Shown here piece by piece: positions 16,123 to 63,734 of a stretch of 64,000 nt of DNA (the stretch's first letter is position 1; every line of letters begins with the position of its first letter). The DNA comes from a virus. Position numbers and translations under genes: made by a program. Below the pieces are notes generated by a model. The model searched no databases and was not told the origin of the DNA. It worked only from the letters and a program-made list of their open reading frames with translations. The stretch spans positions 1-64,000 of IMG/VR virus record IMGVR_UViG_3300025137_005412; one strand, 5' to 3'.

Positions 16123-16381
16123 GTTAGAAGATGAAGATCGTCAGGGTCTTGAAGATGCTATTGAAGATGCTACACATGCCGCTGAAAGGTATCTTACATC
16201 TGAAAAGCAGATACATAAAAAATTATTAGAAGTCACAGTAGATGATGCATTACACGCATTATCTTTATATAAAGATTTATTGGTAGATGATCCTAAGAAA
16301 GAAACTTATAAGATTCATTTATTAGTACCCGTACAAATTATAGAAATGTTAAAGGAAAAAGATGAAAATACAAAAGGCTGA
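16112..16381 (+). CDS. hypothetical acidic protein
   Basis: ORF coupled between gp45 and dCMP deaminase. Confidence 0.55.
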   Translation: MAIELEDEDRQGLEDAIEDATHAAERYLTSEKQIHKKLLEVTVDDALHALSLYKDLLVDDPKKETYKIHLLVPVQIIEMLKEKDENTKG

Positions 16382-16796
16382 TAAGTTATACGGTGAATTA
16401 GCAGATTTCATTGGCCAACAATCTACAAGCAGACGCTTTAAGTGTGGAGCTGTATTAGTAGAAGATGGTCTAGAAAATATTATTGCTTTTGGTTATAATG
16501 GTACTCCACGTGGTTGGGATAATAACTGCGAACATTATAATGACAGTTCTGAAGAACTGGAAACTAAAAGAGAGGTTTTGCATGCGGAAACAAACGCAAT
16601 TGCGAAAGTCGCACGAACTACATCTAGCTCTGAGGGATCGACGCTTTATGTCTCACTATCTCCTTGCTATGATTGTGCAAAGCTCGTCTATCAAGCTGGT
16701 GTGGTCCGTGTTGTCTATAATAAAGAATACCGAGATAGATCAGGAATTGATTTTCTATTAGAAGCGGGAGTTGAATGTGAAGAAAGAGAACTTTGA
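16362..16796 (+). CDS. cd: dCMP deaminase
   Basis: GYNGTP, HAETNAI, SPCYDC. Confidence 0.93.
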   Translation: MKIQKADKLYGELADFIGQQSTSRRFKCGAVLVEDGLENIIAFGYNGTPRGWDNNCEHYNDSSEELETKREVLHAETNAIAKVARTTSSSEGSTLYVSLSPCYDCAKLVYQAGVVRVVYNKEYRDRSGIDFLLEAGVECEEREL

Positions 16797-17007: not shown

Positions 17008-17942
17008 TGAAAGAACATTTTTTATGGGTAGAAAAATATCGTCCTAAAACTATAGACGATTGTATTCTACCAGACAAGTTAAAGCAAACGTTTATTAACC
17101 TTAGAGATAAAGGTAATATGATGAACTTGCTTTTATCAGGTTCGGCAGGCACAGGCAAAACTACAGTTGCTCGTGCTCTATGCGAAGAGCAAGGCTGTGA
17201 TTACATTATAATCAACGGTTCAGATGAGGGTAGATCTATAGATATACTCAGAGATAAGATAAAGAAATTCGTCTCTACTGTTTCAACTACTGCTAAGCCG
17301 AAAGTGGTGATTATTGATGAGGCTGATTACTTAGGTATCGCTGTCCAACCTGCTCTTCGCAATTTTATTGAAGAGTTTAGTTCAAATGCTAGATTTATAT
17401 TAACATGTAATTTCAAGCATAAGATTATTCCACCTTTACATTCAAGGTGTAGTGTTATAGACTTTAGTATATCTAAAGCTGATATGGCTGCAAATGCTGG
17501 TGGTATTGCTAAAAGATGCATGCATATTCTTGACAATGAAAAAGTCAAGTATGAAAAACAAGCAGTGCTTGAAGTTGTAAAATCTTATTTCCCTGATAAT
17601 CGTAGAATCATAAATGAATTACAAAGATATTCTCATATTGATAATAACATTGATAGTGGTATCATTGCAGTTGTAAATACAACAAAAGTAAAAACACTTG
17701 TAAAATATATTAAGCAAAAAGATTTTAAATCATGTCGAGCATGGATCGCTGATAATCCTGATGCTGATTCTTTATTCAATGAGTTCTATCAATCTATAAA
17801 TGAATATGTAGAACCATCTTCAATACCAAATCTTATATTGATTATCGGTGAGTACTTACATAGAGCTGCATTCGTCACGAATCAAGAAATTAATTTAGCT
17901 GCATTTGTGGTAGAGGTAATGAAGAATGTCAAGTTCCGTTAA
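17007..17942 (+). CDS. gp44: clamp loader large subunit (AAA+)
   Basis: LWVEKYRP, GSAGTGKT, IIDEAD, LHSRC. Confidence 0.96.
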   Translation: MKEHFLWVEKYRPKTIDDCILPDKLKQTFINLRDKGNMMNLLLSGSAGTGKTTVARALCEEQGCDYIIINGSDEGRSIDILRDKIKKFVSTVSTTAKPKVVIIDEADYLGIAVQPALRNFIEEFSSNARFILTCNFKHKIIPPLHSRCSVIDFSISKADMAANAGGIAKRCMHILDNEKVKYEKQAVLEVVKSYFPDNRRIINELQRYSHIDNNIDSGIIAVVNTTKVKTLVKYIKQKDFKSCRAWIADNPDADSLFNEFYQSINEYVEPSSIPNLILIIGEYLHRAAFVTNQEINLAAFVVEVMKNVKFR

Positions 17943-18573
17943 AATAATCAGTTATACCAATGCACCAGGCACTCCTGAGGACAAAGTTTTAACTGATCTA
18001 ATAGCATATACAGCTAGAGTTTCTAATCCATCCAATCAAGACAATAAGGCGACTCAGGACAAGCTCCTTAAATACTTAATGAAGAATCAACATTGGTCAC
18101 CATTCGAAATGGTTAATGTTTGTATGGAAATTAAAACAACAAGAGATATTGCAAGACAAATATTAAGACATAGAAGTTTCTCATTCCAAGAGTTTAGTCA
18201 AAGGTATGCTGTTGCCAACTCCTTTACTCTTAGAGAGGCTAGAATACAAGACACTAAGAACAGACAGAATTCACATGACAATTTAGATATAAAACTAGAA
18301 AGAGACTGGTTGAATAAACAACAAGACTTGGTTGATAAAGCTAGAGAGTTATATGAATGGGCATTGGAAAACAAGATTGCTAAAGAGCAAGCCAGAGCAG
18401 TCTTACCAGAGGGATTAACAAATTCAACTTTATATATGAATGGCACATTGCGAAGTTGGATACATTACATTGATTTGAGAATTGCTAATGGAACTCAAAA
18501 AGAACATAGAGAAGTGGCAGAAAAATGCTTGGAACAGATTTCAAAAATCTTTCCTGCAATCCAAGGTAAATAG
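17926..18573 (+). CDS. thyX: FAD-dependent thymidylate synthase
   Basis: HWSPFE, RHRSFSFQEFSQRY, KEQARAVLP. Confidence 0.96.
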   Translation: MSSSVKIISYTNAPGTPEDKVLTDLIAYTARVSNPSNQDNKATQDKLLKYLMKNQHWSPFEMVNVCMEIKTTRDIARQILRHRSFSFQEFSQRYAVANSFTLREARIQDTKNRQNSHDNLDIKLERDWLNKQQDLVDKARELYEWALENKIAKEQARAVLPEGLTNSTLYMNGTLRSWIHYIDLRIANGTQKEHREVAEKCLEQISKIFPAIQGK

Positions 18574-31813: not shown

Positions 31814-32884
31814 ATGTCACTACTAGAAAAACTCAAAAAAACGTCAACGGTAAAATCAACAGCCGTTCTTGCTGAATCAGCATTATTCAACAAAAAAGAT
31901 ATGGTCCCAACAGATATACCTGTTGTTAACATTGCACTATCTGGAAAAGTTGAAGGTGGTCTTACTTCAGGCCTTACAATACTTGCTGGTCCATCAAAAC
32001 ATTTCAAATCAAACTTAGCTTTACTTATGGCTTCTGCATATCTTAGAAAATATGAAGATGCTGTATGTCTATTATATGATACAGAATTCGGTATCACACC
32101 TGAATATCTTCAAAGTATGAATGTAGATCCTAAAAGATGTATGCATACACCAATAGAACATGTAGAACAACTTAAGTTTGATATTACAAAACAATTAGAA
32201 CAAATTGACAAAGGCGATAAGGTCATTATACTTATTGATTCAGTTGGTAATTTAGCTTCAAAGAAAGAACTTGAAGATGCACTTGATGGTAAGTCAGTTG
32301 CTGATATGTCAAGAGCTAAAGCAATTAAATCTTTATTTAGAATAATTACACCTTACCTAACAACAAGAGATATACCATTAGTTGCGGTAAATCATACATA
32401 TAAAGAGATTGGCATGTTCCCTAAAGACATTATGTCTGGTGGTTCAGGTATTTACTACTCAGCCAATCAAATATTATTTATGGGTAGGCAACAAGAAAAA
32501 GATGGTACAGAAATCTCAGGTTATAACTTTATGATGGGTGTTGAAAAATCTAGATTTGTAAGAGAAAAAACAAGACTTCCATTATCAATATCATGGGAAG
32601 GTGGCATTAACAAATGGTCAGGCCTTCTTGATATCGGACTAGAACTTGGATGGATTACTAAACCATCTGTTGGTTGGTTCGAAGGTACTAATCCTAATAC
32701 AGGTGAAGTATTTTTAAAGAAAAGACGAGCAGAAACTAATTCATCAGAGTATTGGCTACCATTACTTAAGTCTGGTTTTAGTGATGCTATTGAAAAAAGA
32801 TATGCAATTGGTTCTATTCAATCAGTAGTGGAGGAAAATGTCGAAGTTGTCGAAGAAGATTCAACCGTTGATAACGATCAATGA
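31814..32884 (+). CDS. uvsX: RecA-like recombinase
   Basis: AGPSKHFKS, YDTEFG, DSVGNLASKKE, ADMSRAK. Confidence 0.96.
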   Translation: MSLLEKLKKTSTVKSTAVLAESALFNKKDMVPTDIPVVNIALSGKVEGGLTSGLTILAGPSKHFKSNLALLMASAYLRKYEDAVCLLYDTEFGITPEYLQSMNVDPKRCMHTPIEHVEQLKFDITKQLEQIDKGDKVIILIDSVGNLASKKELEDALDGKSVADMSRAKAIKSLFRIITPYLTTRDIPLVAVNHTYKEIGMFPKDIMSGGSGIYYSANQILFMGRQQEKDGTEISGYNFMMGVEKSRFVREKTRLPLSISWEGGINKWSGLLDIGLELGWITKPSVGWFEGTNPNTGEVFLKKRRAETNSSEYWLPLLKSGFSDAIEKRYAIGSIQSVVEENVEVVEEDSTVDNDQ

Positions 32885-44561: not shown

Positions 44562-45207
44562 TATATTTTCAGATGAAGAAAGACAAGCTCTATTAGAGAT
44601 ATACTACTCACATAAAGAGTATGATACTGAAGCTATGAAGAAAGCACCAGTATGTGATCATACATTAGATATAGTACAGGACAGAATCAGGCAGCTCATA
44701 GGCACTGATTATGAATACGTTTCTGGTAATTACTATGAACATACTAAACCGTTTTATCCTCACACTGACTTCAGAAAAGAATGGGTAGAAAGTATTAATA
44801 TGGTAATACCATTAAAGAATAGAACAGAAAACTATAATGGTAAGCTTGTTATATTTGATCAGATGTGGGAAGATGATAGTCAGACATGGATGATGACACA
44901 TCCAACAACTCAGTTTACAGTAAATACAGCACTAAGCGGATGTCCATTTGATTATCCTATTACAAACAAAACAGGCGAGAAGATGGATCAAATGTTTTGG
45001 GAAACTCATCTTAAACAATTCCCTTCATGGTGTTGGAATGAATTATCAGGTCATACTTATAGATACGAAGAGAACAGCATAATAATATTCAATAATAAGA
45101 AAATACACTGCACTAATAATTTTAAAGGCAGTAAGACTGGTCTTACATTAAGATATAAGAAGAGACATACAAATCCATTATTTAAGGAGTATGCAAATGT
45201 TAGTTGA
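44539..45207 (+). CDS. 2OG-Fe(II) oxygenase-like protein
   Basis: YPHTD, VIPL, KIHCT, GLTLR. Confidence 0.5.
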   Translation: MQTTQLSSIFSDEERQALLEIYYSHKEYDTEAMKKAPVCDHTLDIVQDRIRQLIGTDYEYVSGNYYEHTKPFYPHTDFRKEWVESINMVIPLKNRTENYNGKLVIFDQMWEDDSQTWMMTHPTTQFTVNTALSGCPFDYPITNKTGEKMDQMFWETHLKQFPSWCWNELSGHTYRYEENSIIIFNNKKIHCTNNFKGSKTGLTLRYKKRHTNPLFKEYANVS

Positions 45208-45892
45208 TATACAAGGTGTTGGTACGGTAGGTATGGCAATGAGACATATCTTTAGGCATTGCTTTCATGAAAGTTTAACTGATGTAGATGCAGTGATCAT
45301 TACAAATCATGAAGATTACTTGTATGATGTACTTACTGATGTATTGAAATGGCATACAGGTTTAGTCATAATCAAATGTACTGTAAGACCTGATATATTA
45401 AAAAAGATTATGGGTCTACATGACAAGATATGTTATGTACCTGAATTTCTTAGAGAAAAGCATTCACTTACAGATGCTACATTACCAGAGTTCAGAATAT
45501 TTGGTGGTACCAAAGAAAATATTGCATTAGCAGAAAAAGTGTTTGCTGATTCACACTCACATGCACATAGAATATTCCACATGTCCGCAGAAGAAGCTGC
45601 GTTTGTCAAGTATAGCATTAACTCTTATCTTGCTCTTAAAGTAGGTTTCTTTAATGATCTATATGATAAGGCTAAAAAAGAAAATTTGAATTGGTATAAT
45701 ATTAGTCAAGCAATTATAGCAGATGAAAGAATTGGTTCATCACATTCAGAAGTACCTGGTCATGATGGTGAGTTTGGTTTTGGTGGTAAATGTTTACCTA
45801 AAGACTTAGAAGCTTTTATAGATTATACAAAGTCTGATTTGCTTAAAGAAGTAAGAAATAGTAATGAAGGCAGGAGAGCATTAAACAAATGA
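45191..45892 (+). CDS. truncated UDP-glucose/GDP-mannose dehydrogenase
   Basis: GVGTVG, KCTV, PEFLRE, KY..NSYLA.KV, GFGGKCLPKD; no C-terminal domain. Confidence 0.8.
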   Translation: MQMLVDIQGVGTVGMAMRHIFRHCFHESLTDVDAVIITNHEDYLYDVLTDVLKWHTGLVIIKCTVRPDILKKIMGLHDKICYVPEFLREKHSLTDATLPEFRIFGGTKENIALAEKVFADSHSHAHRIFHMSAEEAAFVKYSINSYLALKVGFFNDLYDKAKKENLNWYNISQAIIADERIGSSHSEVPGHDGEFGFGGKCLPKDLEAFIDYTKSDLLKEVRNSNEGRRALNK

Positions 45893-50573: not shown

Positions 50574-50585
50574 AACTCACATTTT

Positions 50586-50756
50586 ACTGTGATATATTTG
50601 TCACAGTTGTCAATAAAAACACTCTTAAAGTACTAAGTAGTTGTTTTCTAATAACAAAATAATCTAAAAAAACTGCAGTTTAATGTAAAAAACGTTGTAC
50701 ATTACCGTATAACCTGTATAGAATAGTACATATAACTGATTAACAAAGGAGAATAT
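50586..50756 (+). promoter_or_regulatory. early promoter cassette copy A
   Basis: ACTGTGA-N8-TCACAGT palindrome, IHF-like box, TGTACA-17-TAGAAT, GATTAACAAAGGAGAATATATG. Confidence 0.75.
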
Positions 50757-51038
50757 ATGACAATTAATATAACTACAGGATATGAATACACTGGTTCAAA
50801 TGCAGATGCATGCGGTGATATTGAAGAAGTTTGTACATTTAAACAAGGTATCAAACACTTTGGCATTAGCGGTGGACAAGTTAAAGGCATGAAAGCAGTT
50901 GCTAGATTGGTAAGATACAGAATAGAAGAAGATGATGACGGTAAAGAAATCAAACGTCCAGTATACTTCTCAGTATTTGATGCTAATGAGTTTGCTGCTA
51001 GAAAAGCTTTACTTAAACCAACTAAGAGGGTAGCATAA
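50757..51038 (+). CDS. ArdC N-terminal-like (ssDNA-binding) protein
   Basis: N.TTG..Y.GSN, TFKQ, GQVKGMK, YFSVF. Confidence 0.55.
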   Translation: MTINITTGYEYTGSNADACGDIEEVCTFKQGIKHFGISGGQVKGMKAVARLVRYRIEEDDDGKEIKRPVYFSVFDANEFAARKALLKPTKRVA

Positions 51039-53742: not shown

Positions 53743-53797
53743 GGAATATCACGGCCGACACCCCTCTATAGCACACGAGTACAAAAAACTCATAAAA

Positions 53798-53956
53798 ACA
53801 GTGATAAAAATGTCACAGTAGGGAATAAAAATGACGGCTGTGGTCTAAGTGGTTGATTTCTAATAACAAAATAATCTAAAAAAATGCATAAAGTTGTTTA
53901 CATGCTCGCCGAACTGTATAGAATAGGCTATATCAATGATTAACAAAGGTAAATAT
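53798..53956 (+). promoter_or_regulatory. early promoter cassette copy B
   Basis: GTGA-N8-TCAC, exact IHF box 53846-53858, GTTTAC-17-TAGAAT, GATTAACAAAGG. Confidence 0.75.
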
Positions 53957-54136
53957 ATGACAGAAAAAATGAAAGCGGCATTTCAAAAAGCCGTAACCAA
54001 CCCAGAAAACTTGAATCTTGATGGTTCAATTAACTGGAACTTTGTAGATGCAGATGTGTATCATGAAGTAGACCCTGATGAAACTACTGTACATTACAAT
54101 AAGTTTCATATGCTTTGTAATTCTTTTAAACTTTAA
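53957..54136 (+). CDS. small early protein
   Basis: N...DGSINWNFVDADVY; start matches cassette copies A and C. Confidence 0.7.
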   Translation: MTEKMKAAFQKAVTNPENLNLDGSINWNFVDADVYHEVDPDETTVHYNKFHMLCNSFKL

Positions 54137-54153
54137 CAGCGAGGACAATAACC

Positions 54154-54342
54154 ATGAGTAAAATGAATCAACTATACCTAGAACTAAGCGAACGTGCACA
54201 GGACTATATCAGCGACTTTGCTGATAAGAAGTACTTCACATTATTAGATGCCAAGGATGCCTACCTTGATATATACGGCGAGTCAGCTGCTCCCATCTTT
54301 GAACAAGAATGCGAAACAGCTAGCGAGATAGGTATCATATAA
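54154..54342 (+). CDS. small early protein
   Basis: GAGG RBS. Confidence 0.6.
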   Translation: MSKMNQLYLELSERAQDYISDFADKKYFTLLDAKDAYLDIYGESAAPIFEQECETASEIGII

Positions 54343-54455
54343 TGCTTGAAACAATCTTATACTGGGTAATATTCCCAACTATGGGCTTCACATTCTATTG
54401 TGCATGTGTAGCCCTATACCTACATACAAAAGAAATCTTTAAGGAGGATATATAA
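54342..54455 (+). CDS. 37-aa membrane peptide (not in ORF track)
   Basis: TAATG-coupled at both ends; MLETILYWVIFPTMGFTFYCACVALYLHTKEIFKEDI*. Confidence 0.55.
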   Translation: MLETILYWVIFPTMGFTFYCACVALYLHTKEIFKEDI

Positions 54456-54964
54456 TGGCTAAATCAGGCTACAAACAACCAAATACAATCGAAGAAGCTG
54501 TCAAGGGTCTTACCCCTGTGGTAAAGAAATTTGCAAGACAGTATACCCGTAATCACTATCACCTGTACGAAGACCTCATGCAGGATGGTTTTATGGGTAT
54601 CTGTGAGGCATGGGAAAAGTTTGACCATACCAAGGGTGCCAGCTTTACCACCTACGCATGGTTCTATATCCGTAAGAAGATGCAGACCACGGTAGATCCC
54701 TTTTGGAAATGGGATAATAAGACGGTGCCAGAAGACTGGGCTCCCGATAGTGGCTATGAGCATAGCTTCGATGGCTTCGCCGCAGTACAGGCATTCCATC
54801 AGTTAAATGAGTATGAGCAGAAGCTTATCATGCTCAGAACCGAGGGCTATACCTTTAGTGAGATAGCTAAGACCCTTAATAAAGAATCACCTAAGAAGCG
54901 ATCTCTGAATAAGATCAGGTCTGAAATACTTGAGATACAAGATCGCCTGGTAGCAGAAGAATAG
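54455..54964 (+). CDS. sigma-70 family RNA polymerase sigma factor (regions 2 and 4)
   Basis: EDLMQDGFMGI.EA.EKFD..KGASFTTYA..YIR; EGYTFSEIAK HTH. Confidence 0.88.
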   Translation: MAKSGYKQPNTIEEAVKGLTPVVKKFARQYTRNHYHLYEDLMQDGFMGICEAWEKFDHTKGASFTTYAWFYIRKKMQTTVDPFWKWDNKTVPEDWAPDSGYEHSFDGFAAVQAFHQLNEYEQKLIMLRTEGYTFSEIAKTLNKESPKKRSLNKIRSEILEIQDRLVAEE

Positions 54965-54979
54965 TACTAGGTAGGTAAT

Positions 54980-55016
54980 CCCATCAAATACCCGAGACCG
55001 TTAGGTATTTGGTGGG
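54980..55016. terminator. 13-bp hairpin at the convergent strand junction
   Basis: CCCATCAAATACC-N11-GGTATTTGGTGGG. Confidence 0.6.
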
Positions 55017-55080
55017 GCAAAAGTCCCGGGAAGGTCGTCCGTGCTTAGCTCCGAAGAGATTTTTTTTCACCAGGATTTTT

Positions 55081-56328
55081 TTACCCGAGTATTGGTGGTA
55101 ATGGTAGAGAGGATTCGTTATCACTTGCCCTCTGGGGATGTTCGGCTAGTATTGGTTTAGCTCCCTCTATATAGGGTGGAGGTGGTGGATTCAATATGAT
55201 CTTCTTCGGTGGTTCTATACCCATAGATTGAAAGTTATTCGGTATCTGTTGTAGTGTATCATTTGAACCGGTAATAGCATGTCTCATTGCATTTCTTTCA
55301 TTCATTTCCTTCTCGAATTGTTGTCTCTGCTGCTCATCTGTTGGATATACTGTATTACCTCCCTGGTCGAATAGACCCATCCAAGGTATATGTATCCTTA
55401 CCGGACCGATAGGAGTATCAATATCGCATTCTAATACCGTGTCTTTACCCTTCGGACCGGCCTTGATCTGTTCGTGCTTCGCCTGTATTCGAAGCTGCAG
55501 TACATCTTTCGGATGCATAAGATCGGGGTAGATGATATTCTCCTGACCCGCCAGCTGTCTCTCGATACTCGCCCGGATATCATCCGGATTATCCTCATAG
55601 GCGATACCTCGGACCTCGGGAGTTATCTTCTTAATATCTACGAGCTCCTCATCATTCTCTATATGTGCCATCAGGTTCTCCCATGTTATCTGATGAAAGT
55701 TATCAAATCCAATGAGTCTCGGAGGTGACTTACCATCGAGTGGATTGACGTGATAGAACTCGGTATCGGGGAACTGTTTAATAATCCACTGATATCTTCT
55801 CTGCCAGTTACGAAATGTAGGTGCTCCGTTGATTACACCTTCCTTCTTCTTGGCATAGTGCTTCATACCCTCATAGAGGTTATTCATCAGGCCATTACTA
55901 TCGGGATTATTGATATCGGCATCGGACTTGATACCAAAGAAGTCATTACCGATGAGAAAGATCTTCTTATGTTCATGTACCTTACAGGCCACATAGGTGG
56001 CGGATGGTCCGGCTGCAAACTTCTCGGGTGTTGGTATCTTCTTGGCTCCGCTTCCAGGTTTAGGAAACCACGTATAGAACCAGTTCGATCTCGGCCAGTT
56101 AGGTGTAGTCTTCAATATAGTACGAGTCATAGGCTCATCAGATGCTACTAATACATGTGGTGCAAACTCTTCTCGATAGAACCAGTTGCAGGCATAGAGT
56201 ATTCCATACTCTTTAAGTGTCTTAATATCCTTATCTTTTCTTGTGATACCGTTACCAATTACCCATGCGTACTGACCGGTCGGTAGTGTCTTCTTACCGG
56301 TACCCTTAATCTTTGGAAGCTTCTTCAT
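55081..56328 (-). CDS. Maf/DUF115/sialyltransferase-like nucleotide-sugar transferase with Pro-rich tail
   Basis: VIGNGITR, YACN..YR, LVASD, AGP.A, IFLIGND. Confidence 0.55.
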   Translation of the reverse strand: MKKLPKIKGTGKKTLPTGQYAWVIGNGITRKDKDIKTLKEYGILYACNWFYREEFAPHVLVASDEPMTRTILKTTPNWPRSNWFYTWFPKPGSGAKKIPTPEKFAAGPSATYVACKVHEHKKIFLIGNDFFGIKSDADINNPDSNGLMNNLYEGMKHYAKKKEGVINGAPTFRNWQRRYQWIIKQFPDTEFYHVNPLDGKSPPRLIGFDNFHQITWENLMAHIENDEELVDIKKITPEVRGIAYEDNPDDIRASIERQLAGQENIIYPDLMHPKDVLQLRIQAKHEQIKAGPKGKDTVLECDIDTPIGPVRIHIPWMGLFDQGGNTVYPTDEQQRQQFEKEMNERNAMRHAITGSNDTLQQIPNNFQSMGIEPPKKIILNPPPPPYIEGAKPILAEHPQRASDNESSLPLPPILG

Positions 56329-57410
56329 ATATACCTCTTCATAAATTTGTTAAGACCCGCATCAACATGTAGAGACCTGTTCATGTTATGTTCTCGATCC
56401 TTATTAGTATTATACCATATATCCTGCCATTCTTTATCACTCAGGTGATATAAACGACTGATCTCCTCGTTCAACCTGTTAAGTCTATTAAGTGGATTAC
56501 GTTCGTTGTCGTATGAATGGTCTATATACCGATCAAAGAACTTCCATCCCTTCCTTCGTAGGTTGTTGATATGATGTTGCTGTGCCCAGTACAGAGAAAG
56601 GTTCCCTGATCTGAGAGCACGAAATGTCTTCTCACTTGCAAATGTAGTTAACGGTCCACCATTGACTCGTGTTTCCGATACGATCTCCAGTTGAAAGTTT
56701 GCTCGTGAATCATAGCTATCTACCATGGCACCATTCTCTCCCGCTATCAGGTCCTGTCCCTCATTAGTTATTCTATTCTTAATAGAACCCCAATTATCAA
56801 AGTGTTTCTTTAATGGTTCACTGATATGCGGTCTCTCGAGCTCGGTAAGTACATGTGGACATCTGATCTCCATCTGCATATTACTATTTACAAGTCTCTT
56901 TAAGAGTTCGATACGATATGTATAGTGTCTTCTCATCCAGAAGAACATACGATACTTCCTACTTACCTTCTGATCTCTTCGATTGTTAGATGGTTCAGGC
57001 TGTGACTGTGATAGATTACAATCAACGAACTTCTTCCAGTATGGAATATAGATCCAGTTCTTATCACAATTCTGAGTAAGTGGTCCTGAATTACAATGCC
57101 AGAAGTTTATGTTATCATAGTTCTTAAACTCATTCTTTACATCAAACCATTCAAGAAACCATGGTTCCATACCGACATTGACTATATAGACTACCTGATC
57201 ATTACCATGCTCATCATACATCTTATTCATATAATCACGAGCTACTTTATAGTCATTAAAGCCACCCATATGTTCAAAGTATATTACCTTATGATTCTTT
57301 GAGAGAGTAGCAAGATGTGGTTGAAAGCAGGATAGAGCTTTAGGTTTGAATGGGTACATCGATGTACCCATTTCTCTGATAAATGAGTTTGCTTGTATTA
57401 GTGGAAACAT
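56325..57410 (-). CDS. putative glycosyltransferase (GT10-like C-terminal motif)
   Basis: IVSET...FASEKT, IDHSYD. Confidence 0.4.
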   Translation of the reverse strand: MFPLIQANSFIREMGTSMYPFKPKALSCFQPHLATLSKNHKVIYFEHMGGFNDYKVARDYMNKMYDEHGNDQVVYIVNVGMEPWFLEWFDVKNEFKNYDNINFWHCNSGPLTQNCDKNWIYIPYWKKFVDCNLSQSQPEPSNNRRDQKVSRKYRMFFWMRRHYTYRIELLKRLVNSNMQMEIRCPHVLTELERPHISEPLKKHFDNWGSIKNRITNEGQDLIAGENGAMVDSYDSRANFQLEIVSETRVNGGPLTTFASEKTFRALRSGNLSLYWAQQHHINNLRRKGWKFFDRYIDHSYDNERNPLNRLNRLNEEISRLYHLSDKEWQDIWYNTNKDREHNMNRSLHVDAGLNKFMKRYI

Positions 57411-58573
57411 TGTTCGGTTCCATACTTTATAATCTTCTTAGTTCGAGGAATATCAAGATCGACATCATCTCCCCAAGGATCAACGAGTATTGAACCATCG
57501 GCAATGGAATCTATTATAAACTGTGAAGGACCACGGCTACAGAGATATACAGCCGGTTCACTCAGATACTTCTCATAATGAATCTTTGGTTGATTAAACA
57601 TATCTATCTGTGCCTCCATATCTTCAATCCATGCAGCGACTAGGAGAGAAGGAGAACCATCCGTGAGTTCAGATTCTGACTTAAAACCATTATCTAGAAA
57701 TACAATCGGTAGATCAAATGTCAAAAGATACTCGGACATCTTCTTAGCTTGAAAATCTCTTGCTTCCATGACCGATGAGAAGAGATCGTACTTAAGTTTA
57801 AGTTCCTCTGATAGAGACTTTAATGCTATATTATCTCGTGGATGACATGGACCACCGTCACCAAGACCAGGCTTCATGTATTTCTCACTGATAATTCTTT
57901 TCTTTGATTTGGCCAGAGCATTACATACCATGTTAGCATCTGTATGACCAATCTCCATTGCTACATCTTGAATCATATTGACAAAGGATATTTTCATAGA
58001 GATAAAAGTATTATAGAATACCTTTATACATTCAGCCTCCTCATATGAACCAGTTTCCCATCTCACTTTCGTAGTGATAATAGGTTTATAGAATTCTTTC
58101 AGTTCTTTAATATCTTCTTCATCACCACCAGCAATCATCATCTCAGGATTTAGAAAATCTTCCTTTACGGTACCCATTGCAATCAGATATGGATTGTATG
58201 CGAGTCTATAATTTTCAGGTATGTCGATCAATCTGTTTCTAAATGTGGTAGGTAATACAGTAGAGATTACAGTAACGAGTGCGTTGGGAGCGGCATAGTC
58301 ATTGAGATCTATGAGTACATCTTCAAGAGATGAGTAATCAAAATCCATTGCGGGTAAATTGTAAGTAGGTTTTTCACCACCATAGTTTTCATGATGTGGT
58401 GTAGGTACGGCAATAAAGATCATCTCAGCATCTTTACATACTTCAGCCATGTCAGTATTCATTTTTATATCATGAATATGAACATCATAGTATTCATTCA
58501 TTACATCAGCAACTGGTTGACCAAGTTTGCCTGCTCCGATAAATGCTACTTTCTTATTTTTTGCCACTGTCAA
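57398..58573 (-). CDS. UDP-glucose/GDP-mannose dehydrogenase family
   Basis: IGAGKLG, IAVPTP, STVLP, KVFYNTFIS.K, GDGGPCHPRD. Confidence 0.9.
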   Translation of the reverse strand: MTVAKNKKVAFIGAGKLGQPVADVMNEYYDVHIHDIKMNTDMAEVCKDAEMIFIAVPTPHHENYGGEKPTYNLPAMDFDYSSLEDVLIDLNDYAAPNALVTVISTVLPTTFRNRLIDIPENYRLAYNPYLIAMGTVKEDFLNPEMMIAGGDEEDIKELKEFYKPIITTKVRWETGSYEEAECIKVFYNTFISMKISFVNMIQDVAMEIGHTDANMVCNALAKSKKRIISEKYMKPGLGDGGPCHPRDNIALKSLSEELKLKYDLFSSVMEARDFQAKKMSEYLLTFDLPIVFLDNGFKSESELTDGSPSLLVAAWIEDMEAQIDMFNQPKIHYEKYLSEPAVYLCSRGPSQFIIDSIADGSILVDPWGDDVDLDIPRTKKIIKYGTEQCFH

Positions 58574-58659
58574 AACCTTTTTTAAGAATACTTAAAACTA
58601 GGATTGTGGCTAAGGAAATGATGAAAGCATCCGCAATAGTTAATAGATCCATGATTTAT

Positions 58660-59367
58660 TTATTTTACGAGTTTGAAGTGACGCTCGTATACATGAAGAT
58701 TCTGAACTTGCCATACTATCTGGCCAATCTTAACACTAAGATCTTGGGATAAACGTGAAAGAACTTCTTGCTGCCATGCATAATCATTACGATAGCCATA
58801 TATAACATCATTAGATCTCATTTGAACTACTGAATGAATGGAGTTATTACGAATATAATATGTCACAGCATTAGTACAGATGAAATCATTCTTGCCATTT
58901 TCTCGGTATTCTTTCCATATAGATGGACGATTGTATATCATAGCAGCACGTCTGGAATCTGGATTATCAAGAAGTTCTTCGACTACATGTTCATATTGAT
59001 TATGATATAGATCATCGAAGATTAACTTACCGTAATTTGAATTGATATTACCATAATGATCAGCAGACATTTGCCATGCTTTAGGTGGTAGTTTATCTTC
59101 AGGACCATAGATGTCATATATATTTGTAGAGGTTGAATCATACCATTCAATTTCAGCATCTATATACTTTTGATTAGGGATACCAAAGATCGCAGGTTCA
59201 TCGGCTACAAAAGAAGCACCAATTAATTCTATAGTCTTAGAACCAGATCGATCCTTGGTAAACTTTTTTTGATTCAGTTCACTAATAAAGTGAGATCTGA
59301 TATCAGAAACTTTAGGTGTTAGATCATTTTTCAAAGATCTTCGCGAGAATTCCAGTATTTCCGCCAT
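58660..59367 (-). CDS. gp42: dCMP hydroxymethylase
   Basis: INSNYG, SRRAAMIY.RPS, DFICTN, MRSNDVIYGYRNDYAW, LHVYERHF match T4 gp42 incl. dCMP-specific Asp. Confidence 0.85.
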   Translation of the reverse strand: MAEILEFSRRSLKNDLTPKVSDIRSHFISELNQKKFTKDRSGSKTIELIGASFVADEPAIFGIPNQKYIDAEIEWYDSTSTNIYDIYGPEDKLPPKAWQMSADHYGNINSNYGKLIFDDLYHNQYEHVVEELLDNPDSRRAAMIYNRPSIWKEYRENGKNDFICTNAVTYYIRNNSIHSVVQMRSNDVIYGYRNDYAWQQEVLSRLSQDLSVKIGQIVWQVQNLHVYERHFKLVK

Positions 59368-59746
59368 GGTCAGGTGCCTCCCAATTTGCTGGTTTAGTTA
59401 AGTCCGGTAATCCATAAGGATTAGGACGTGATTCTTTAATTCCAATTTCTTTATTTAAGTTTGCTTTAAGTACTTCTTGCCATGCTTTATTACCATCTAC
59501 TTTGAAAGCATCAAGTGTACCAGCAGCAAATACAATAAGATCAATAAGACCATCTACAATTTCTTTTGTATCACCATCATCAAGTGCTGCTTTAGTTTCA
59601 TCTAATTCTTCTTGACACATTTCTAATCTAAATGCTAGGTACTTACCAAGCATATCTTTATTCATTCTATCTACTACTACAGGTACCATATATTTCATAT
59701 GCATACCTTTCATATCTTCAAATATATCACTCATATCTTGCTCCAT
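59324..59746 (-). CDS. MazG-like dNTP pyrophosphatase (dCTPase/dUTPase candidate)
   Basis: EELDE, EIVDGLID, PDLTKP..W.AP. Confidence 0.75.
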   Translation of the reverse strand: MEQDMSDIFEDMKGMHMKYMVPVVVDRMNKDMLGKYLAFRLEMCQEELDETKAALDDGDTKEIVDGLIDLIVFAAGTLDAFKVDGNKAWQEVLKANLNKEIGIKESRPNPYGLPDLTKPANWEAPDHGGNTGILAKIFEK

Positions 59747-60041
59747 TAAAAATTGCTGAGAATATTAAAGGTTCTATATCTGTATTATACACTTTATGAA
59801 ACTTATTTGCTGGTACTGGAATAGTATCACCAGGTTTAACTGCAAATGTTTCTTCATCTATTTGCATAAGTCCATTACCTTTTGTAAATACATATACTTC
59901 TTCTTGTTGTTTATCACTGTGTGTATGACCATTTGTTTCACATCCAGGTTGTAAGCAAGTAATTGATGGAACTAATATCTTTAGTTCATCATTATCTAGT
60001 ACGTAGTACCTCTCGTCTTTCTTAGCTATTTTCCAGGTCAT
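59727..60041 (-). CDS. cupin protein
   Basis: GHTH..QEEVY, FHKVYN. Confidence 0.8.
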   Translation of the reverse strand: MTWKIAKKDERYYVLDNDELKILVPSITCLQPGCETNGHTHSDKQQEEVYVFTKGNGLMQIDEETFAVKPGDTIPVPANKFHKVYNTDIEPLIFSAIFNGARYE

Positions 60042-60312
60042 GTGTATGTAAGGCTATAAGAGCGTAATGTAATATCTTCATGATATCAGCTCTGTTTTTA
60101 CCATCTTTCTTTCCATATCGTTGTGTATATTTTAAAACATTACCTAAACTAAAGCTTAGGCCATGGCCACAATCAATAATAAATTCTGTTGATTGAAACT
60201 TATTCTTAGAGTAATGACCATCATAAGTCTTATCAATATAAGATTGCAGATCATCAATCAGATTCTTTTCATTGAACTTGTATTCTATTTTACTTTGTGA
60301 ATGGCCAGCCAT
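60022..60312 (-). CDS. DUF3310-like protein (nucleotide-modification associated)
   Basis: YIDKTYDGHY, GNVLKY..RYGKKDG, D..K.LHY. Confidence 0.75.
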   Translation of the reverse strand: MAGHSQSKIEYKFNEKNLIDDLQSYIDKTYDGHYSKNKFQSTEFIIDCGHGLSFSLGNVLKYTQRYGKKDGKNRADIMKILHYALIALHTHDLENS

Positions 60313-60493
60313 TTTTATTTCCTTTTAAGTTTTCAATTCTTTCTTTTAAAAAAGATATAGTAGTATATATGAATCCACAATCATGTGGTTCTAATAATGT
60401 TTCGAAATATTTGATTTCATTTTCTAGTATTTCTATTTTAGCACCATCAGAATATTCCATGGTACCACTATCATTTATTTGTTTATTGTCCAT
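60290..60493 (-). CDS. hypothetical protein
   Basis: PHDCGFIYTTISFL. Confidence 0.6.
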   Translation of the reverse strand: MDNKQINDSGTMEYSDGAKIEILENEIKYFETLLEPHDCGFIYTTISFLKERIENLKGNKNGWPFTK

Positions 60494-60767
60494 CCATTTT
60501 TCCTCTCATATATGATACTGCGAATGAGCAGTAATTAATCATGTCTTTATAGGTATCTTCTAGTGATTCAAACTTTACATCACCATCAGCTTCGAGAAGA
60601 GACTGAGCTCTAAGTAGTTTCTGATGAATCATGTCATGAATAGTATCAACACCACGCCTGTAATGCATGGCTTGTTTAATATCTGATTTGGGATTTTGAT
60701 AATCTTGAGACTTAGCTAATTGTAAGTCAATACATTCTTTAAGTATTTTTACTGATTCTTTTTCCAT
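60483..60767 (-). CDS. DUF1599/Nmad-like nucleotide-modification associated protein
   Basis: KSQDYQ, K..R, ESLEDT..DMINY. Confidence 0.7.
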   Translation of the reverse strand: MEKESVKILKECIDLQLAKSQDYQNPKSDIKQAMHYRRGVDTIHDMIHQKLLRAQSLLEADGDVKFESLEDTYKDMINYCSFAVSYMRGKMDGQ

Positions 60768-61227
60768 GGTGCTCGCTGTGTATGTTTATTAATCTATTAA
60801 TATTATACTTTTTAATTCTAATTTTTTTCTGTACGAGATGATTCATCCATGATTTTTTATTTGTAAACTTATCTCCATAGAATATCTTTAAGAGTGTATC
60901 ATCACTGATACCTTTTCTATCGAATAATCTATCAAGATCAAATGTAGTTGGTAGTACTTCATCAGCAGTATCTCTCTTATAGAGTTCATATGATTGCGGA
61001 TGATAATCTTTAATGTATGATATAAAGTTTGCACTATAACCACAATTAAAGCAATGGCATACAAGACCTTGTTGTTTTGCATCTACCCAGAATCTTGCTT
61101 TACGAGTATTAGTAGCACTATCACCACATACTTGACATGACCAGTTCCATGAGTATTGAGTTTTCTTCTTATAGTTTCTTACTTCGTAAGTAAGACTGTC
61201 AGCAATTGAAATTAAGTTATGAAGCAT
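60739..61227 (-). CDS. stand-alone T4 gp61-type primase zinc-binding domain protein
   Basis: CQVCGDS..NTRKARFW...HCFNCGY...Y.K..P..YELY. Confidence 0.75.
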   Translation of the reverse strand: MLHNLISIADSLTYEVRNYKKKTQYSWNWSCQVCGDSATNTRKARFWVDAKQQGLVCHCFNCGYSANFISYIKDYHPQSYELYKRDTADEVLPTTFDLDRLFDRKGISDDTLLKIFYGDKFTNKKSWMNHLVQKKIRIKKYNINRLINIHSEHHGKRISKNT

Positions 61228-61988
61228 TCTTGAATTTTATCTATTTGTCTAAGAGTTTCTTCGAACATGTTTGGTGTTAACATGTTTGGTCCATCAGAAG
61301 GTGCTACAGTAGGATTATCATGAACTTCCATAAAGAATCCATCTACACCAACGGCAGCTGCAGCTCTACATAATGGTTGAACGAATTGTCTTTTACCACC
61401 ACTGACTCCATCACCAGCACCAGGTTCTTGTACTGAATGTGTAGCATCGAATATAACTTTCATATTTGGATAATCTTTTTGAAGTACCTGTCTCATATAA
61501 CTTAAACCTCTCATGTCTACTACTAGATTATTATACCCGAAAGTTGTACCTCTTTCTGTAATCCATATAGGAGCATCAGGATCAGGTTTAGATAGTATAC
61601 CTTTAACTTCTTTATATGATAGGAATTGACCTTTCTTTATATTAACAGGTTTCCATGTAGAACATGCTTCTACAATAAGATCTGTTTGTCTGCAAAGAAA
61701 AGCTGGGATTTGGAATACATCTATAATGTCTTGAAGATATTCCACTTGATAGCACTCATGAACATCCGTCAAAAGTTTCATGTCTGGATTTTCATTCTTT
61801 AGAAACTCAAAGTCCTCAACGAATTGTTTTAATCCAACACCTCGTTTACCTTTAACTGAACTTCGGTTTGCCTTATCAAAAGAAGCTTTATAATAAAATT
61901 CACCACTTACAATCTCTTTGATAGCGTCAAACATTTTCTGTGAATGTTCAATACTTTCATGTTGACATGGTCCCGCAATTAAAATCAT
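61212..61988 (-). CDS. kdsA: Kdo-8-phosphate synthase
   Basis: IAGPC, KASFDKANRSS, QIPAFLCRQTDL, KKGQF, ERGTTFGY, DATHSVQ, SDGPN. Confidence 0.95.
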   Translation of the reverse strand: MILIAGPCQHESIEHSQKMFDAIKEIVSGEFYYKASFDKANRSSVKGKRGVGLKQFVEDFEFLKNENPDMKLLTDVHECYQVEYLQDIIDVFQIPAFLCRQTDLIVEACSTWKPVNIKKGQFLSYKEVKGILSKPDPDAPIWITERGTTFGYNNLVVDMRGLSYMRQVLQKDYPNMKVIFDATHSVQEPGAGDGVSGGKRQFVQPLCRAAAAVGVDGFFMEVHDNPTVAPSDGPNMLTPNMFEETLRQIDKIQECFIT

Positions 61989-61991
61989 AAT

Positions 61992-62129
61992 TTAGTTTCT
62001 ATCGTAAAAATCGTCTAAAGGGTTATCAGGTAGATTATACTTCTTTTTACGATCTTTTTCCGCTTGTTCTTTTTCTTCTTTAGTTAGGCCGCGATCTTTC
62101 AGAGGTCTAGCCTCCATAAATCGGTCTGT
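61992..62129 (-). CDS. small hypothetical protein
   Basis: MTDRFMEARP...; late-like TAAATA upstream. Confidence 0.45.
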   Translation of the reverse strand, partial: TDRFMEARPLKDRGLTKEEKEQAEKDRKKKYNLPDNPLDDFYDRN

Positions 62130-62142
62130 CATACTATATTTA

Positions 62143-62571
62143 TTACCCGATATTATCAAGTGCATCTCTGACAAATTTGATATTATCAGCATTATTATCT
62201 AACACTTTAATAGCATCATCCATATAAGTTATGTAGTCTGTTTCTTGTTCTATCTCTCTAACAATCACATCAACTTTATCATGTATAGGATCATCGTGAT
62301 CTACTAGGTCCCATATCTTATAGCCAATAGATTCAATCTCACTTACTTTTTCTTTGAAAAATTTTTGAGCCTGTTCTTTATTGTAGCTATCCATAATAGT
62401 ATCATAATCTCTGCTACCTTTTTCAGCAACTGAGAGTACTAGCTCATCATCACTTGACCAAGCTTCGTACAGTACATACTCTTTGCCATCTCTGACACCT
62501 TGAACACGAATGATCTTTTCTTCATCAGTATAGTTATCTTCAATAACATTTTTTAAATTTTCTAGTTTCAT
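62143..62571 (-). CDS. acidic hypothetical early protein
   Basis: Follows 62574 ORF. Confidence 0.6.
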   Translation of the reverse strand: MKLENLKNVIEDNYTDEEKIIRVQGVRDGKEYVLYEAWSSDDELVLSVAEKGSRDYDTIMDSYNKEQAQKFFKEKVSEIESIGYKIWDLVDHDDPIHDKVDVIVREIEQETDYITYMDDAIKVLDNNADNIKFVRDALDNIG

Positions 62572-62573
62572 AT

Positions 62574-62915
62574 TTACCTACTTTCTTGGATTAATCTTGG
62601 AGTGTGAGCATTTCTTTCCATTTTTGAAAAGTATTCTGACCACCATTTATCAGTACTAGTTTCTCTGACTTCAGAGGTCTTGATTACTTGTTTTAAAGTA
62701 ATAAGATCTGCTTCATAAAAATCTAATAACATATCAGTGAATGGATTTCTGTCATTTGATTTCCATTTGATTTCATTGCCATCAGCATAAAAATCATCTT
62801 TATATGTTTCTACTGCATTTTGTGTAGTAGACCATTGATAATTGTAGAACTCATCATTTCTCTTATAGTCTCTACCAGCGATAGTCACTTCATTAAATAA
62901 TTTTTTATCTTTCAT
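62574..62915 (-). CDS. hypothetical early protein
   Basis: Start set by cassette RBS AAAGGAGAATATATG; WKSNDRNPF.DML. Confidence 0.65.
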   Translation of the reverse strand: MKDKKLFNEVTIAGRDYKRNDEFYNYQWSTTQNAVETYKDDFYADGNEIKWKSNDRNPFTDMLLDFYEADLITLKQVIKTSEVRETSTDKWWSEYFSKMERNAHTPRLIQESR

Positions 62916-63104
62916 ATATTCTCCTTTGTTAATCATTTATATGTACCATTCTATACAGGTTATACAGTAATGTACAACGTTTTATGCGTTTCTTTAAGAT
63001 TAAATTGTTATAAGAAAACAACTACTTAGACCTAAACTGTTAATAACTTTTAGATTATACTTTAAAATCAACAACTTAAACTTTCGTTTGTTATCAACCA
63101 CTTA
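62916..63104 (-). promoter_or_regulatory. early promoter cassette copy C with three IHF-like boxes
   Basis: Near-identical to copy A from -35 to ATG; WATCAA-N4-TTA at 63066 and 63092, variant at 63016. Confidence 0.75.
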
Positions 63105-63734
63105 AAGTTTTTTCCTCATAGCAGCCATTTTTTGTCTAGCGGTGTGCCATCTTGAAAAGGAATAAGGTGTAGGATGCTTACCTAGCTTGAGACCTTCTTT
63201 TCTAAATTCTGATTTAAGAACATCATGACATTCTCTACCCATAAATGCTGATACTAGTTTTAAGAGTACATTACGGTATTCACGACCATGATGCATCTGA
63301 CCTGCGGCATGAGATAATTCATGAAGTAGAACATATAGATTATAACCATGTTTCTGATCAAGTGTAATCTCATATATGTATGCCCAGCCATGACAACCAC
63401 GACCATTGTAGTTTGCCTTATCTCTAAGCTTTACTTTATGACCACCCTTAGCGTCAGCTTTTATAAATGCTGAGGACTTACAAATCCTATTGCATCTTTG
63501 CTGAGCCTCTTTAAGAGTCTTATAATATTCTTGTTTGTGTTTAAATGCTGGTGTTCTGTATAGTGCTCTTTCTGCTCTATATACTTTACCAGCTTCGGTA
63601 TCTCGTTTATTTTCCATACGAGACATGCTGTGTTTTTTCTTATGCTGATTGAGATATCTGATATAAGCTCGTTGCTCGCCAACAAGGATATCCTCCCTCT
63701 CATTGACATCGTTTTTAAACGACTGATAGTCCAT
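63102..63734 (-). CDS. HExxH metalloprotease-like protein
   Basis: LLHELSH, HGREY. Confidence 0.65.
   Translation of the reverse strand: MDYQSFKNDVNEREDILVGEQRAYIRYLNQHKKKHSMSRMENKRDTEAGKVYRAERALYRTPAFKHKQEYYKTLKEAQQRCNRICKSSAFIKADAKGGHKVKLRDKANYNGRGCHGWAYIYEITLDQKHGYNLYVLLHELSHAAGQMHHGREYRNVLLKLVSAFMGRECHDVLKSEFRKEGLKLGKHPTPYSFSRWHTARQKMAAMRKKL

Follow-up and report, generated by a model that had tools for sequence, protein, structure and literature searches.

Does a block of minus-strand genes at positions 55081-61988 of an uncultured marine phage contig equip the virus to build an unusual sugar onto the cytosines of its DNA? The block lies within a stretch of 64,000 nucleotides (the window), which corresponds to positions 1-64000 of the 152,041-bp IMG/VR viral contig IMGVR_UViG_3300025137_005412, a contig that is ~85% complete. 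The first-pass annotation had read these genes as a 5-hydroxymethylcytosine (hmC) cluster coupled to acidic-sugar genes, and had proposed that cytosine may carry a uronic acid, 3-deoxy-D-manno-octulosonic acid (Kdo) or another unusual sugar. We found a predicted true gp42-type deoxycytidine monophosphate (dCMP) hydroxymethylase in the same gene run as a homolog of the T4 alpha-glucosyltransferase (alpha-gt) with coupled donor genes, and to that extent the proposal stands; the sugar itself is not nameable from the sequence, and Kdo is the weakest candidate. By slightly better than an even chance, we favor the view that the locus hypermodifies DNA cytosine in two stages, as T-even phages do.

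The predicted hydroxymethylase and the nucleotide supply genes

The genes that bear on the modified base are the following (E, expect value).

58660-59367, minus strand: gp42-type dCMP hydroxymethylase (PDB 1b5e, E 5e-65)
59324-59746, minus strand: MazG-like nucleoside triphosphate pyrophosphohydrolase (PF01503, PRA-PH, E 7e-9; phrog_671, E 9e-22)
59727-60041, minus strand: small cupin (Cupin_2, E 1e-11; cupin-type GPI, E 5e-5)
60022-60312, minus strand: DUF3310 protein (PF11753, E 1e-9; phrog_480, E 3e-29)
60483-60767, minus strand: DUF1599 protein, "nucleotide modification associated domain 1" (PF07659, E 2e-7)
16362-16796, plus strand: dCMP deaminase (PF00383, E 5e-21)
17926-18573, plus strand: ThyX (PF02511, E 1e-46)

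All five minus-strand genes that had been named as the hmC set were recovered by profile searches, as was the separate supply of thymidine monophosphate (dTMP) through ThyX and dCMP deaminase. The gp42 homolog was 51% identical to the T4 enzyme (PDB 1b5e, residues 19-234). Aligned with T4 gp42 and RB69 gp48, the protein was 53% identical to the former and 24% to the latter. The next-best PDB synthases, which appear unrelated, gave E 3e-9 compared to 5e-65 for the T4 enzyme. The catalytic Cys148 and the dCMP-specifying Asp179, at the position of E. coli ThyA Asn177, are both kept (DFICTN and RNDYAWQ, compared to DFMCTN and RNDYAWQ in T4), and the acidic residue three positions before the cysteine is Asp (NDFIC).

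Thymidylate synthase homologs of RB69 and DLP3 yield 5-hydroxy-dCMP and not hydroxymethyl-dCMP (PMC13326640, 2026). These 5-hydroxycytosine (5hoC) synthases belong to the same superfamily as the window protein and are carried by T4-like phages that have sugar genes close by (PMC13326640); if the protein described here acted in the same way, the sugars would be ether-linked to 5-hydroxycytosine. The same work identified an Asp to Asn change at E. coli ThyA position 169 as diagnostic, with Asn in all tested 5hoC synthases. This position is Asp (MRSND) in the window protein, in T4 and in all aligned marine relatives, whereas RB69 gp48 reads MRSQN. Because MRSND, DFIC and RNDYAWQ are the same as in T4, the window protein and its aligned marine relatives are assigned to the hydroxymethylase type. 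The Asp at the diagnostic position, together with the identity values and PDB scores above, makes synthesis of 5-hydroxy-dCMP by this enzyme extremely improbable, and RB69-type 5-hydroxycytosine chemistry was rejected on the diagnostic residue. Its sequence signature places the thymidylate synthase homolog among the true gp42-type dCMP hydroxymethylases, and hmC is very likely present in the phage DNA.

The gene for the MazG-like protein overlaps that of gp42, and a MazG-like gene was present in the gp42 locus in 69 of 85 related loci, mostly at <=~3 kb upstream. We infer that the MazG-like protein is a dCTPase in the role of T4 gp56. The DUF1599 gene recurred in the gp42 locus in 56/85 loci. 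The cupin gene was found in the closest relatives only and possibly encodes a sugar or phosphosugar isomerase.

A DNA glycosyltransferase homolog coupled to putative donor genes

The minus-strand gene run extends from 55081 to 67938, continuing beyond the window end, where it includes three genes of a transferase unit.

65337-66665, minus strand: T4 alpha-glucosyltransferase-family DNA glycosyltransferase (PF11440, CAZy GT72; beyond the window)
66662-67543, minus strand: GalE-family 4-epimerase (beyond the window)
67531-67938, minus strand: PF01467 nucleotidyltransferase, the first gene of the block (beyond the window)

The statement that no T4 alpha- or beta-glucosyltransferase is recognizable held inside the window, yet the same block encodes a homolog of the alpha enzyme at 65337-66665. 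This protein of 442 amino acids (aa), encoded 1.3 kb past the window end and in single copy in the contig, matched PF11440 above the cut-off (E 7e-29), PDB 1xv5/1y6f over residues 1-365 (E 5.5e-34) and phrog_2888 over residues 1-419 (E 4e-58), and was 27% identical to T4-type alpha-gt genes over 97% of its length. A search of 14 control bacterial genomes with PF11440 returned 0 matches. The epimerase and transferase genes overlap by 4 bp, the nucleotidyltransferase and epimerase genes overlap by 13 bp, and all three were kept at 66-94% identity in 9 contigs.

The epimerase is a 293-aa short-chain dehydrogenase/reductase (SDR), shorter than the usual 330-340 aa. Its top 30 PDB matches were all UDP-Glc/Gal (uridine diphosphate glucose/galactose) 4-epimerases, with E down to 1e-36, compared to 1e-6 to 1e-8 for UDP-glucuronate epimerase/decarboxylase entries, and it retains the nicotinamide adenine dinucleotide (NAD) motif GCNGYIGSH and the catalytic Tyr-x3-Lys (YAKSK). 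The nucleotidyltransferase, of 135 aa, matched PF01467 (E 7e-15), rfaE_dom_II (73 bits), TagD (66 bits) and ECT in the PDB (E 6e-23), and scored about equally as a heptose-1-phosphate adenylyltransferase and as a glycerol-3-phosphate cytidylyltransferase. Coupling to a GalE-type epimerase suggests that the transferase uses a different or additional donor. The transferase homolog probably glycosylates hmC.

A dehydrogenase-like enzyme and two candidate glycosyltransferases

On the other side of gp42, the block ends in three overlapping genes, and KdsA is encoded upstream of the supply genes.

57398-58573, minus strand: UDP-Glc/GDP-Man (guanosine diphosphate mannose) dehydrogenase family protein (PF00984, E 1e-19; PF03721, E 3e-12)
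56325-57410, minus strand: o361, putative GT-B-fold glycosyltransferase (structural model, no Pfam family)
55081-56328, minus strand: o415, Maf/sialyltransferase/MptE-like fold with a proline-rich tail (structural model, no Pfam family)
61212-61988, minus strand: KdsA, 3-deoxy-8-phosphooctulonate synthase (NF003543, 310 bits, cut-off 242)

These correspond to the kdsA, nucleoside diphosphate sugar (NDP-sugar) dehydrogenase and two putative transferase genes of the first-pass annotation, and they are co-oriented with gp42, all on the minus strand, as it had stated. Overlaps of 13 bp and 4 bp join the dehydrogenase gene to o361 and o361 to o415, respectively. The best PDB match of the dehydrogenase was UDP-glucose dehydrogenase (4a7p, E 3e-20), with GDP-mannose dehydrogenase scoring nearly as well. 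Its motifs include GAGKLG (NAD), IKVFYN (Lys/Asn pair) and GGPCHPRD (catalytic Cys). A uronic acid is a plausible product of this enzyme, with stronger support in relatives such as L026 (described below) than in this phage.

A second, short dehydrogenase-family protein (233 aa) is encoded on the plus strand at 45191-45892. Its only regions are the central domain and a short N-terminal segment, and it resembles the 268-300-aa forms that adjoin DNA glycosyltransferases in relatives; its neighbors include nitroreductase-like and UDG-like fragments.

The structural model of o361 is of low confidence (predicted local distance difference test, pLDDT, 65). Its Foldseek matches include MshA, UGTs and T4 BGT (1j39). 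In a VIA comparison, the top 50 matches were mostly GT-B enzymes, aligned to the C-terminal half of the model with Z 7-9, and included T4 BGT, T4 AGT and the glycosyltransferase of phage HY126. The model suggests that o361 is a putative GT-B-fold glycosyltransferase. No sequence-profile link was found between o361 and the alpha-gt family. In profile-profile comparisons of o361 and o415 with alpha-gt, the TET-associated transferase and three unknown families from gp42-uvsX islands, the only relationship involved one divergent alpha-gt subgroup.

The o415 model (pLDDT 81) gave VIA Z 11.9 to Maf (5mu5, a flagellin glycosyltransferase) over 235 residues and Z 9.2 to the sialyltransferase Cst-I (2p56). 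The motifs GNG, N48 and SD were invariant across 36 homologs, and we take the N-terminal GNG to be of the kind present in Cst-type sialyltransferases and DUF115 proteins. The same fold also accommodates pyrophosphokinases: o415 matched the 6-hydroxymethylpterin pyrophosphokinase MptE (8sd5) with Z 8.3 and thiamine pyrophosphokinases with Z 6-7. It could accordingly be read as an MptE-like (pyro)phosphokinase, or as an enzyme acting on a nucleotide or hmC, in which case the downstream genes would lead to a non-sugar or phospho-linked modification. Relatives in this lineage swap in a cassette with a protein like the 5-hydroxymethyluracil (hmU) DNA kinase, so the repertoire of the group includes phosphorylating a hydroxymethyl pyrimidine. 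Since the best and longest structural matches of o415 are to the Maf glycosyltransferase and the Cst-I sialyltransferase, we give the kinase reading little prospect of being right. As modeled, both o361 and o415 appear to fold like glycosyltransferases.

The G+C content is 0.39-0.43 at 54001-58000, compared to ~0.33 elsewhere. This stretch includes a convergent junction at ~55 kb, with o415, o361 and sigma-factor genes, and o415 is conserved in relatives despite its location there.

Linkage to gp42 in marine relatives

Viral contigs were scanned with gp42, which returned 269 relatives, of which 80 were fetched, and with the transferase, which returned 9. In the closest contigs (gp42 78-80% identical), the whole block from the nucleotidyltransferase to o415 was kept, with KdsA missing. 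The order gp42, dehydrogenase, o361, o415 was maintained while o361 identity fell to 35%, and the o361 gene always lay directly after the dehydrogenase gene. Tara contigs L110-L112 contained DUF1599, DUF3310, MazG, gp42, dehydrogenase, o361 (35-45% identity) and o415, convergent with a sigma-factor gene, and lacked both KdsA and the cupin. Tara and related samples also contain contigs nearly identical to those of this lineage. Contig L010 carried KdsA together with the dehydrogenase-o361-o415 string. Because gene order was conserved in several diverged relatives, the linkage goes beyond chance.

More distant marine phages carried dehydrogenase/epimerase pairs beside DNA glycosyltransferases that adjoin gp42. 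L092 had the order phosphomannomutase-like, nucleotidyltransferase, gp42, dCMP deaminase, GalE, transferase, UvsX and gp41. L026 had gp42 followed by a transferase (PF11440, 178 bits), a UDP-glucuronate-4-epimerase-like SDR (PDB 6zl6, E 6e-49) and a dehydrogenase-like gene. Loci of the L063 type had gp42, a TET-associated glycosyltransferase, a C5-methylase-like gene, an SDR, a dehydrogenase-like gene and UvsX. Among the 39 gp42 loci that extend 7 kb or more downstream, a recognizable DNA glycosyltransferase, SDR or dehydrogenase-like gene was present in 20, both an SDR and a dehydrogenase-like gene in 12, and KdsA in only 2. The interval between gp42 and uvsX is the site of the beta-glucosyltransferase (beta-gt) gene in T4 and of the arabinosylation genes in RB69.

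Co-occurrence with gp42 had been suggested as a check on the DNA reading. The dehydrogenase and the two transferase-like genes do lie directly downstream of gp42 in relatives, whereas KdsA failed this comparison. The refuting condition of the first-pass annotation, sugar genes unlinked to gp42 in relatives, therefore does not apply.

In L113 and L010, the slot that the nucleotidyltransferase, GalE and transferase genes occupy here holds genes for an inositol-1-phosphate synthase, an HMUDK-like helical-domain protein, a C5-methylase-like protein, an SDR and one unknown protein. The presence of a different cassette at the same place points to a swappable slot for post-replicative hmC modification.

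The cassette (L113:1924-6945, L052:2997-7886, L010:128-3321) was located between gp42 and uvsX in ~19-27/80 marine gp42 loci, and includes myo-inositol-1-phosphate synthase, a 126-aa protein, a PF18723 protein (5-hmdU DNA kinase helical domain), a 333-aa unknown protein and a C5 DNA-methylase-like protein. It may direct an undescribed hmC modification. A C5 cytosine-methylase-like protein of ~400 aa also adjoins DNA glycosyltransferases (L063:12518-13726, L027:15567-16763 and 20 other loci), recurring in phages that are expected to hold no unmodified cytosine.

A host-type promoter cassette (TTGTACA, 17 nt, TGTATAGAAT) was identified at 62930-63110 on the minus strand, upstream of 62936 and of the string that runs from o120 through KdsA and gp42 to o415. 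It is one of three aligned copies of a ~110-bp sequence; the other two, at 50574-50760 and 53780-53940 on the plus strand, precede plus-strand genes at 50.6 and 53.8 kb. The 110-bp cassette probably represents an early promoter of host type, repeated in the genome and preceded by conserved boxes. None of the only 15 copies of the T4 late motif TATAAATA in the contig lies in the block, which is weak negative evidence. A generic promoter and terminator scan gave sites no more frequent than in shuffled sequence, and its result was set aside.

Proposed pathway and the case for plain glucosyl-hmC

In the proposed pathway, the MazG-like pyrophosphatase would convert dCTP to dCMP before replication. 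The gp42 homolog, assigned by its sequence signature, would then make 5-hydroxymethyl-dCMP while ThyX and dCMP deaminase supply dTMP, and hmC would be incorporated into DNA. After replication, the alpha-glucosyltransferase homolog would attach a sugar to hmC in DNA, with a donor made or adjusted by the GalE-type epimerase and the small nucleotidyltransferase. Given this origin of the donor, the base-proximal sugar would likely be a 4-epimer (galactose, for example) or a different NDP-sugar made by the phage, and not host UDP-glucose. The dehydrogenase-like enzyme, o361 and o415 may extend or diversify this sugar, possibly with a uronic acid. Whether the sugar is something other than plain glucose is an evenly balanced question, and a role of the three downstream genes on the DNA glycan is tentative, at somewhat below an even chance.

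Kdo on DNA is quite improbable. KdsA was present in only 2/80 related gp42 loci (L010 and L029) and was missing in the closest relatives; L007, L009, L090, L110 and L112 lack it; no match to KdsB (PF02348) or to KdsD or another SIS-domain isomerase was found in the contig. CMP-Kdo (the cytidine monophosphate-activated sugar) could still come from the host. Because KdsA is rare in relatives and is unaccompanied by KdsB or KdsD, Kdo forms the weakest part of the idea. The sialyltransferase-like fold of o415 is no more than suggestive in this respect. KdsA is best described as a variable, optional insert, and its link to DNA is doubtful.

In its most elaborate form, the pathway would yield hmC with an acidic glycan of two or three sugars, in which the transferase adds a galactose-type hexose, o361 a uronic acid and o415 a CMP-activated ulosonic acid cap (for example Kdo, aided by KdsA). 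We regard this as a long shot. If true, o415 would be the first enzyme of the sialyltransferase fold to act on DNA, and a DNA base in an abundant group of marine phages would bear an oligosaccharide with negative charge.

The simplest rival holds that the phage makes plain T4-style glucosyl-hmC from UDP-glucose, with GalE balancing the UDP-hexose pool, and that the dehydrogenase, KdsA, o361 and o415 serve other glycans, in remodeling of the host envelope, superinfection exclusion or glycosylation of virion proteins. The transferase is, after all, a homolog of a glucosyltransferase whose donor specificity is not readable from its sequence, and the phage GalE could equally convert UDP-galactose to UDP-glucose, giving ordinary glucosyl-hmC. 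The contig also has other sugar clusters, such as that at 2683-4892 on the plus strand, which encodes a GDP-mannose 4,6-dehydratase (456 bits) and a DegT-type aminotransferase (246 bits), a perosamine-like route, and suggests a second glycan system that probably does not concern DNA. (Neighbors of this cluster, within 105-6996, gave weak glycosyltransferase-like matches.) Homologs of o415 occur in contigs without gp42 within 8 kb, KdsA is not conserved with gp42, and the small nucleotidyltransferase family is common in phages with no gp42 nearby. Vibrio phage Va1, for example, has a 76% identical nucleotidyltransferase without nearby gp42, and the small nucleotidyltransferase is therefore not specific to DNA modification.

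Against this rival, T4 needs no donor genes, whereas in this lineage translational coupling links the epimerase to the transferase in all close relatives. Several independent gp42-uvsX islands have dehydrogenase-like genes as immediate neighbors of DNA glycosyltransferases, and the dehydrogenase, o361 and o415 genes belong to the gp42 transcription unit, with its host-type promoter and no late motif. On this evidence we consider plain glucosyl-hmC rather unlikely.

Beyond the points that favor plain glucose, several enzyme assignments weigh against the hypermodification pathway. The MazG-like protein, a putative dCTPase, gave only a weak PDB match, to DR2231. For the gp1-type deoxynucleoside monophosphate kinase, neither a T4 gp1 match nor a small P-loop kinase was found in the ~85%-complete contig, though a divergent kinase could escape such a search. 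The epimerase scored 206 bits with TIGR01179, below the cut-off of 262. The dehydrogenase scored 145.8 bits with TIGR03026 (cut-off 189.8) and far below the cut-off of all equivalog models; because it falls below these NCBIfam cut-offs, the protein at 57398-58573 is recorded only as dehydrogenase-like. The low confidence of the o361 model and the pyrophosphokinases that share the fold of o415 belong with these points. We nevertheless retain two-stage hypermodification of cytosine as the reading we favor.

Surrounding genes and origin of the contig

The remaining genes of the block, and UvsX, are the following.

61992-62192, minus strand: small unnamed open reading frame (ORF)
62143-62571, minus strand: small unnamed ORF
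62574-62936, minus strand: small unnamed ORF
63102-63734, minus strand: small unnamed ORF
63761-64003, minus strand: small unnamed ORF
64159-64617, minus strand: MaoC-like protein (beyond the window)
64614-64850, minus strand: glutaredoxin (beyond the window)
64853-65296, minus strand: redoxin, peroxiredoxin-like (beyond the window)
31814-32884, in the window: UvsX

The five small ORFs (61992-64003) matched no family in PHROGs, Pfam or NCBIfam and are kept in relatives. The MaoC-like, glutaredoxin and peroxiredoxin-like genes separate the transferase from the gp42 sub-block in all relatives of the lineage. Beyond the window, the contig encodes homologs of the curli secretion proteins CsgF and CsgG at 70415-71770 on the plus strand (PF10614, E 5e-11; PF03783, E 6e-53).

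The source is an uncultured marine T4-like phage. The G+C content of the window is ~33%, the contig contains a T4-like replication module (gp43, UvsX and clamp loader), and the DNA polymerase is ~42% identical to cyanophage gp43. A megablast search of cultured phages with the region returned no match, and gp42, the transferase homolog and the DNA polymerase each had <60% identity to any cultured phage.

Significance and comparison with known systems

Sugar marks on DNA determine escape from restriction, CRISPR and modification-dependent defenses, and they hinder the sequencing and cloning of environmental viral DNA. The module points to an uncultured marine T4-like lineage in which the classical gp42 route is combined with a T4-type transferase, donor genes of its own and further candidate transferases. 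The gene set is small and defined (gp42, transferase, epimerase, nucleotidyltransferase, dehydrogenase, o361 and o415), and could yield new enzymes for DNA labeling.

The closest known system is that of T4 (gp56, gp42, gp1, alpha-gt and beta-gt), with which this locus shares the gp42 active-site signature, a full-length alpha-gt homolog, a pyrophosphatase beside gp42 and the replication module. T4 alpha-gt draws on host UDP-glucose and lacks partners of this kind, whereas the transferase described here, only 27% identical, comes with a coupled GalE-type epimerase and nucleotidyltransferase. The dehydrogenase-like enzyme, the two transferase-like proteins and KdsA are additions relative to T4. 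Conversely, no beta-gt or gp1 homolog was found here, the pyrophosphatase is MazG-like and not recognizably gp56, and dTMP comes from ThyX instead of Td.

Other T4-like phages offer a second comparison. RB69, DLP3 and HY126, which make arabinosyl-5-hydroxycytosine (PMC13326640), likewise have an island beside a thymidylate synthase homolog that combines donor synthesis with two or three successive DNA glycosyltransferases. They differ in that 5hoC is produced by a flavin-dependent Asn-variant synthase, and in a sugar route through arabinose-5-phosphate isomerase, a kinase/uridylyltransferase and a phosphatase, none of which is encoded here. The aquatic T4-like Shewanella phage Thanatos (PMC12838424) also has a thymidylate synthase homolog, a dCTPase and a phage-made UDP-sugar, and carries a cytosine-pentose. 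Thanatos differs in its UDP-xylose pyrophosphorylase and fused glycosyltransferase-phosphotransferase, and its synthase is among the 5hoC makers according to PMC13326640.

The nearest precedent for unusual sugars is the work of Pyle et al. (bioRxiv 2023.12.21.572611). In that work, reconstituted phage clusters placed hexose, N-acetylhexosamine, heptose, hexuronic acid and a Kdo-like acid on 5-hydroxymethylcytosine (5hmC), some transferases depended on a partner epimerase, a cytidylyltransferase acted with a GT-B transferase to give heptose, and thymidylate synthase-linked clusters were noted in metagenomes. The masses quoted there are 419 amu for the hexosyl product, 433 for hexuronosyl, 449 for heptosyl and 477 for Kdo, compared to a calculated 257 amu for hmdC itself. 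The GT-B DNA transferases described there resemble T4 beta-gt, MshA and BshA, as does the o361 model. In the clusters that were tested, 5hmC arises after replication through a methyltransferase and a TET-like dioxygenase, whereas here gp42 would act before replication. The epimerase-dependent transferases of that account lie outside its GT-B set and are presumably GT-A, whereas the partner of the epimerase here belongs to the GT-B family of T4 alpha-gt. The parts of the preprint considered here describe no Maf/sialyltransferase-fold enzyme, sugar dehydrogenase or KdsA, whereas the present locus encodes KdsA and candidates for the other two. Hexuronic acid, Kdo and heptose on 5hmC are thus already published. 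The present locus differs in its pre-replicative gp42 route, its alpha-gt-family partner for the epimerase, its dehydrogenase-like gene, its Maf/sialyltransferase-fold protein and its optional KdsA. Because acidic and unusual sugars on 5hmC have been published, what this locus adds is breadth and new enzyme types, not the principle.

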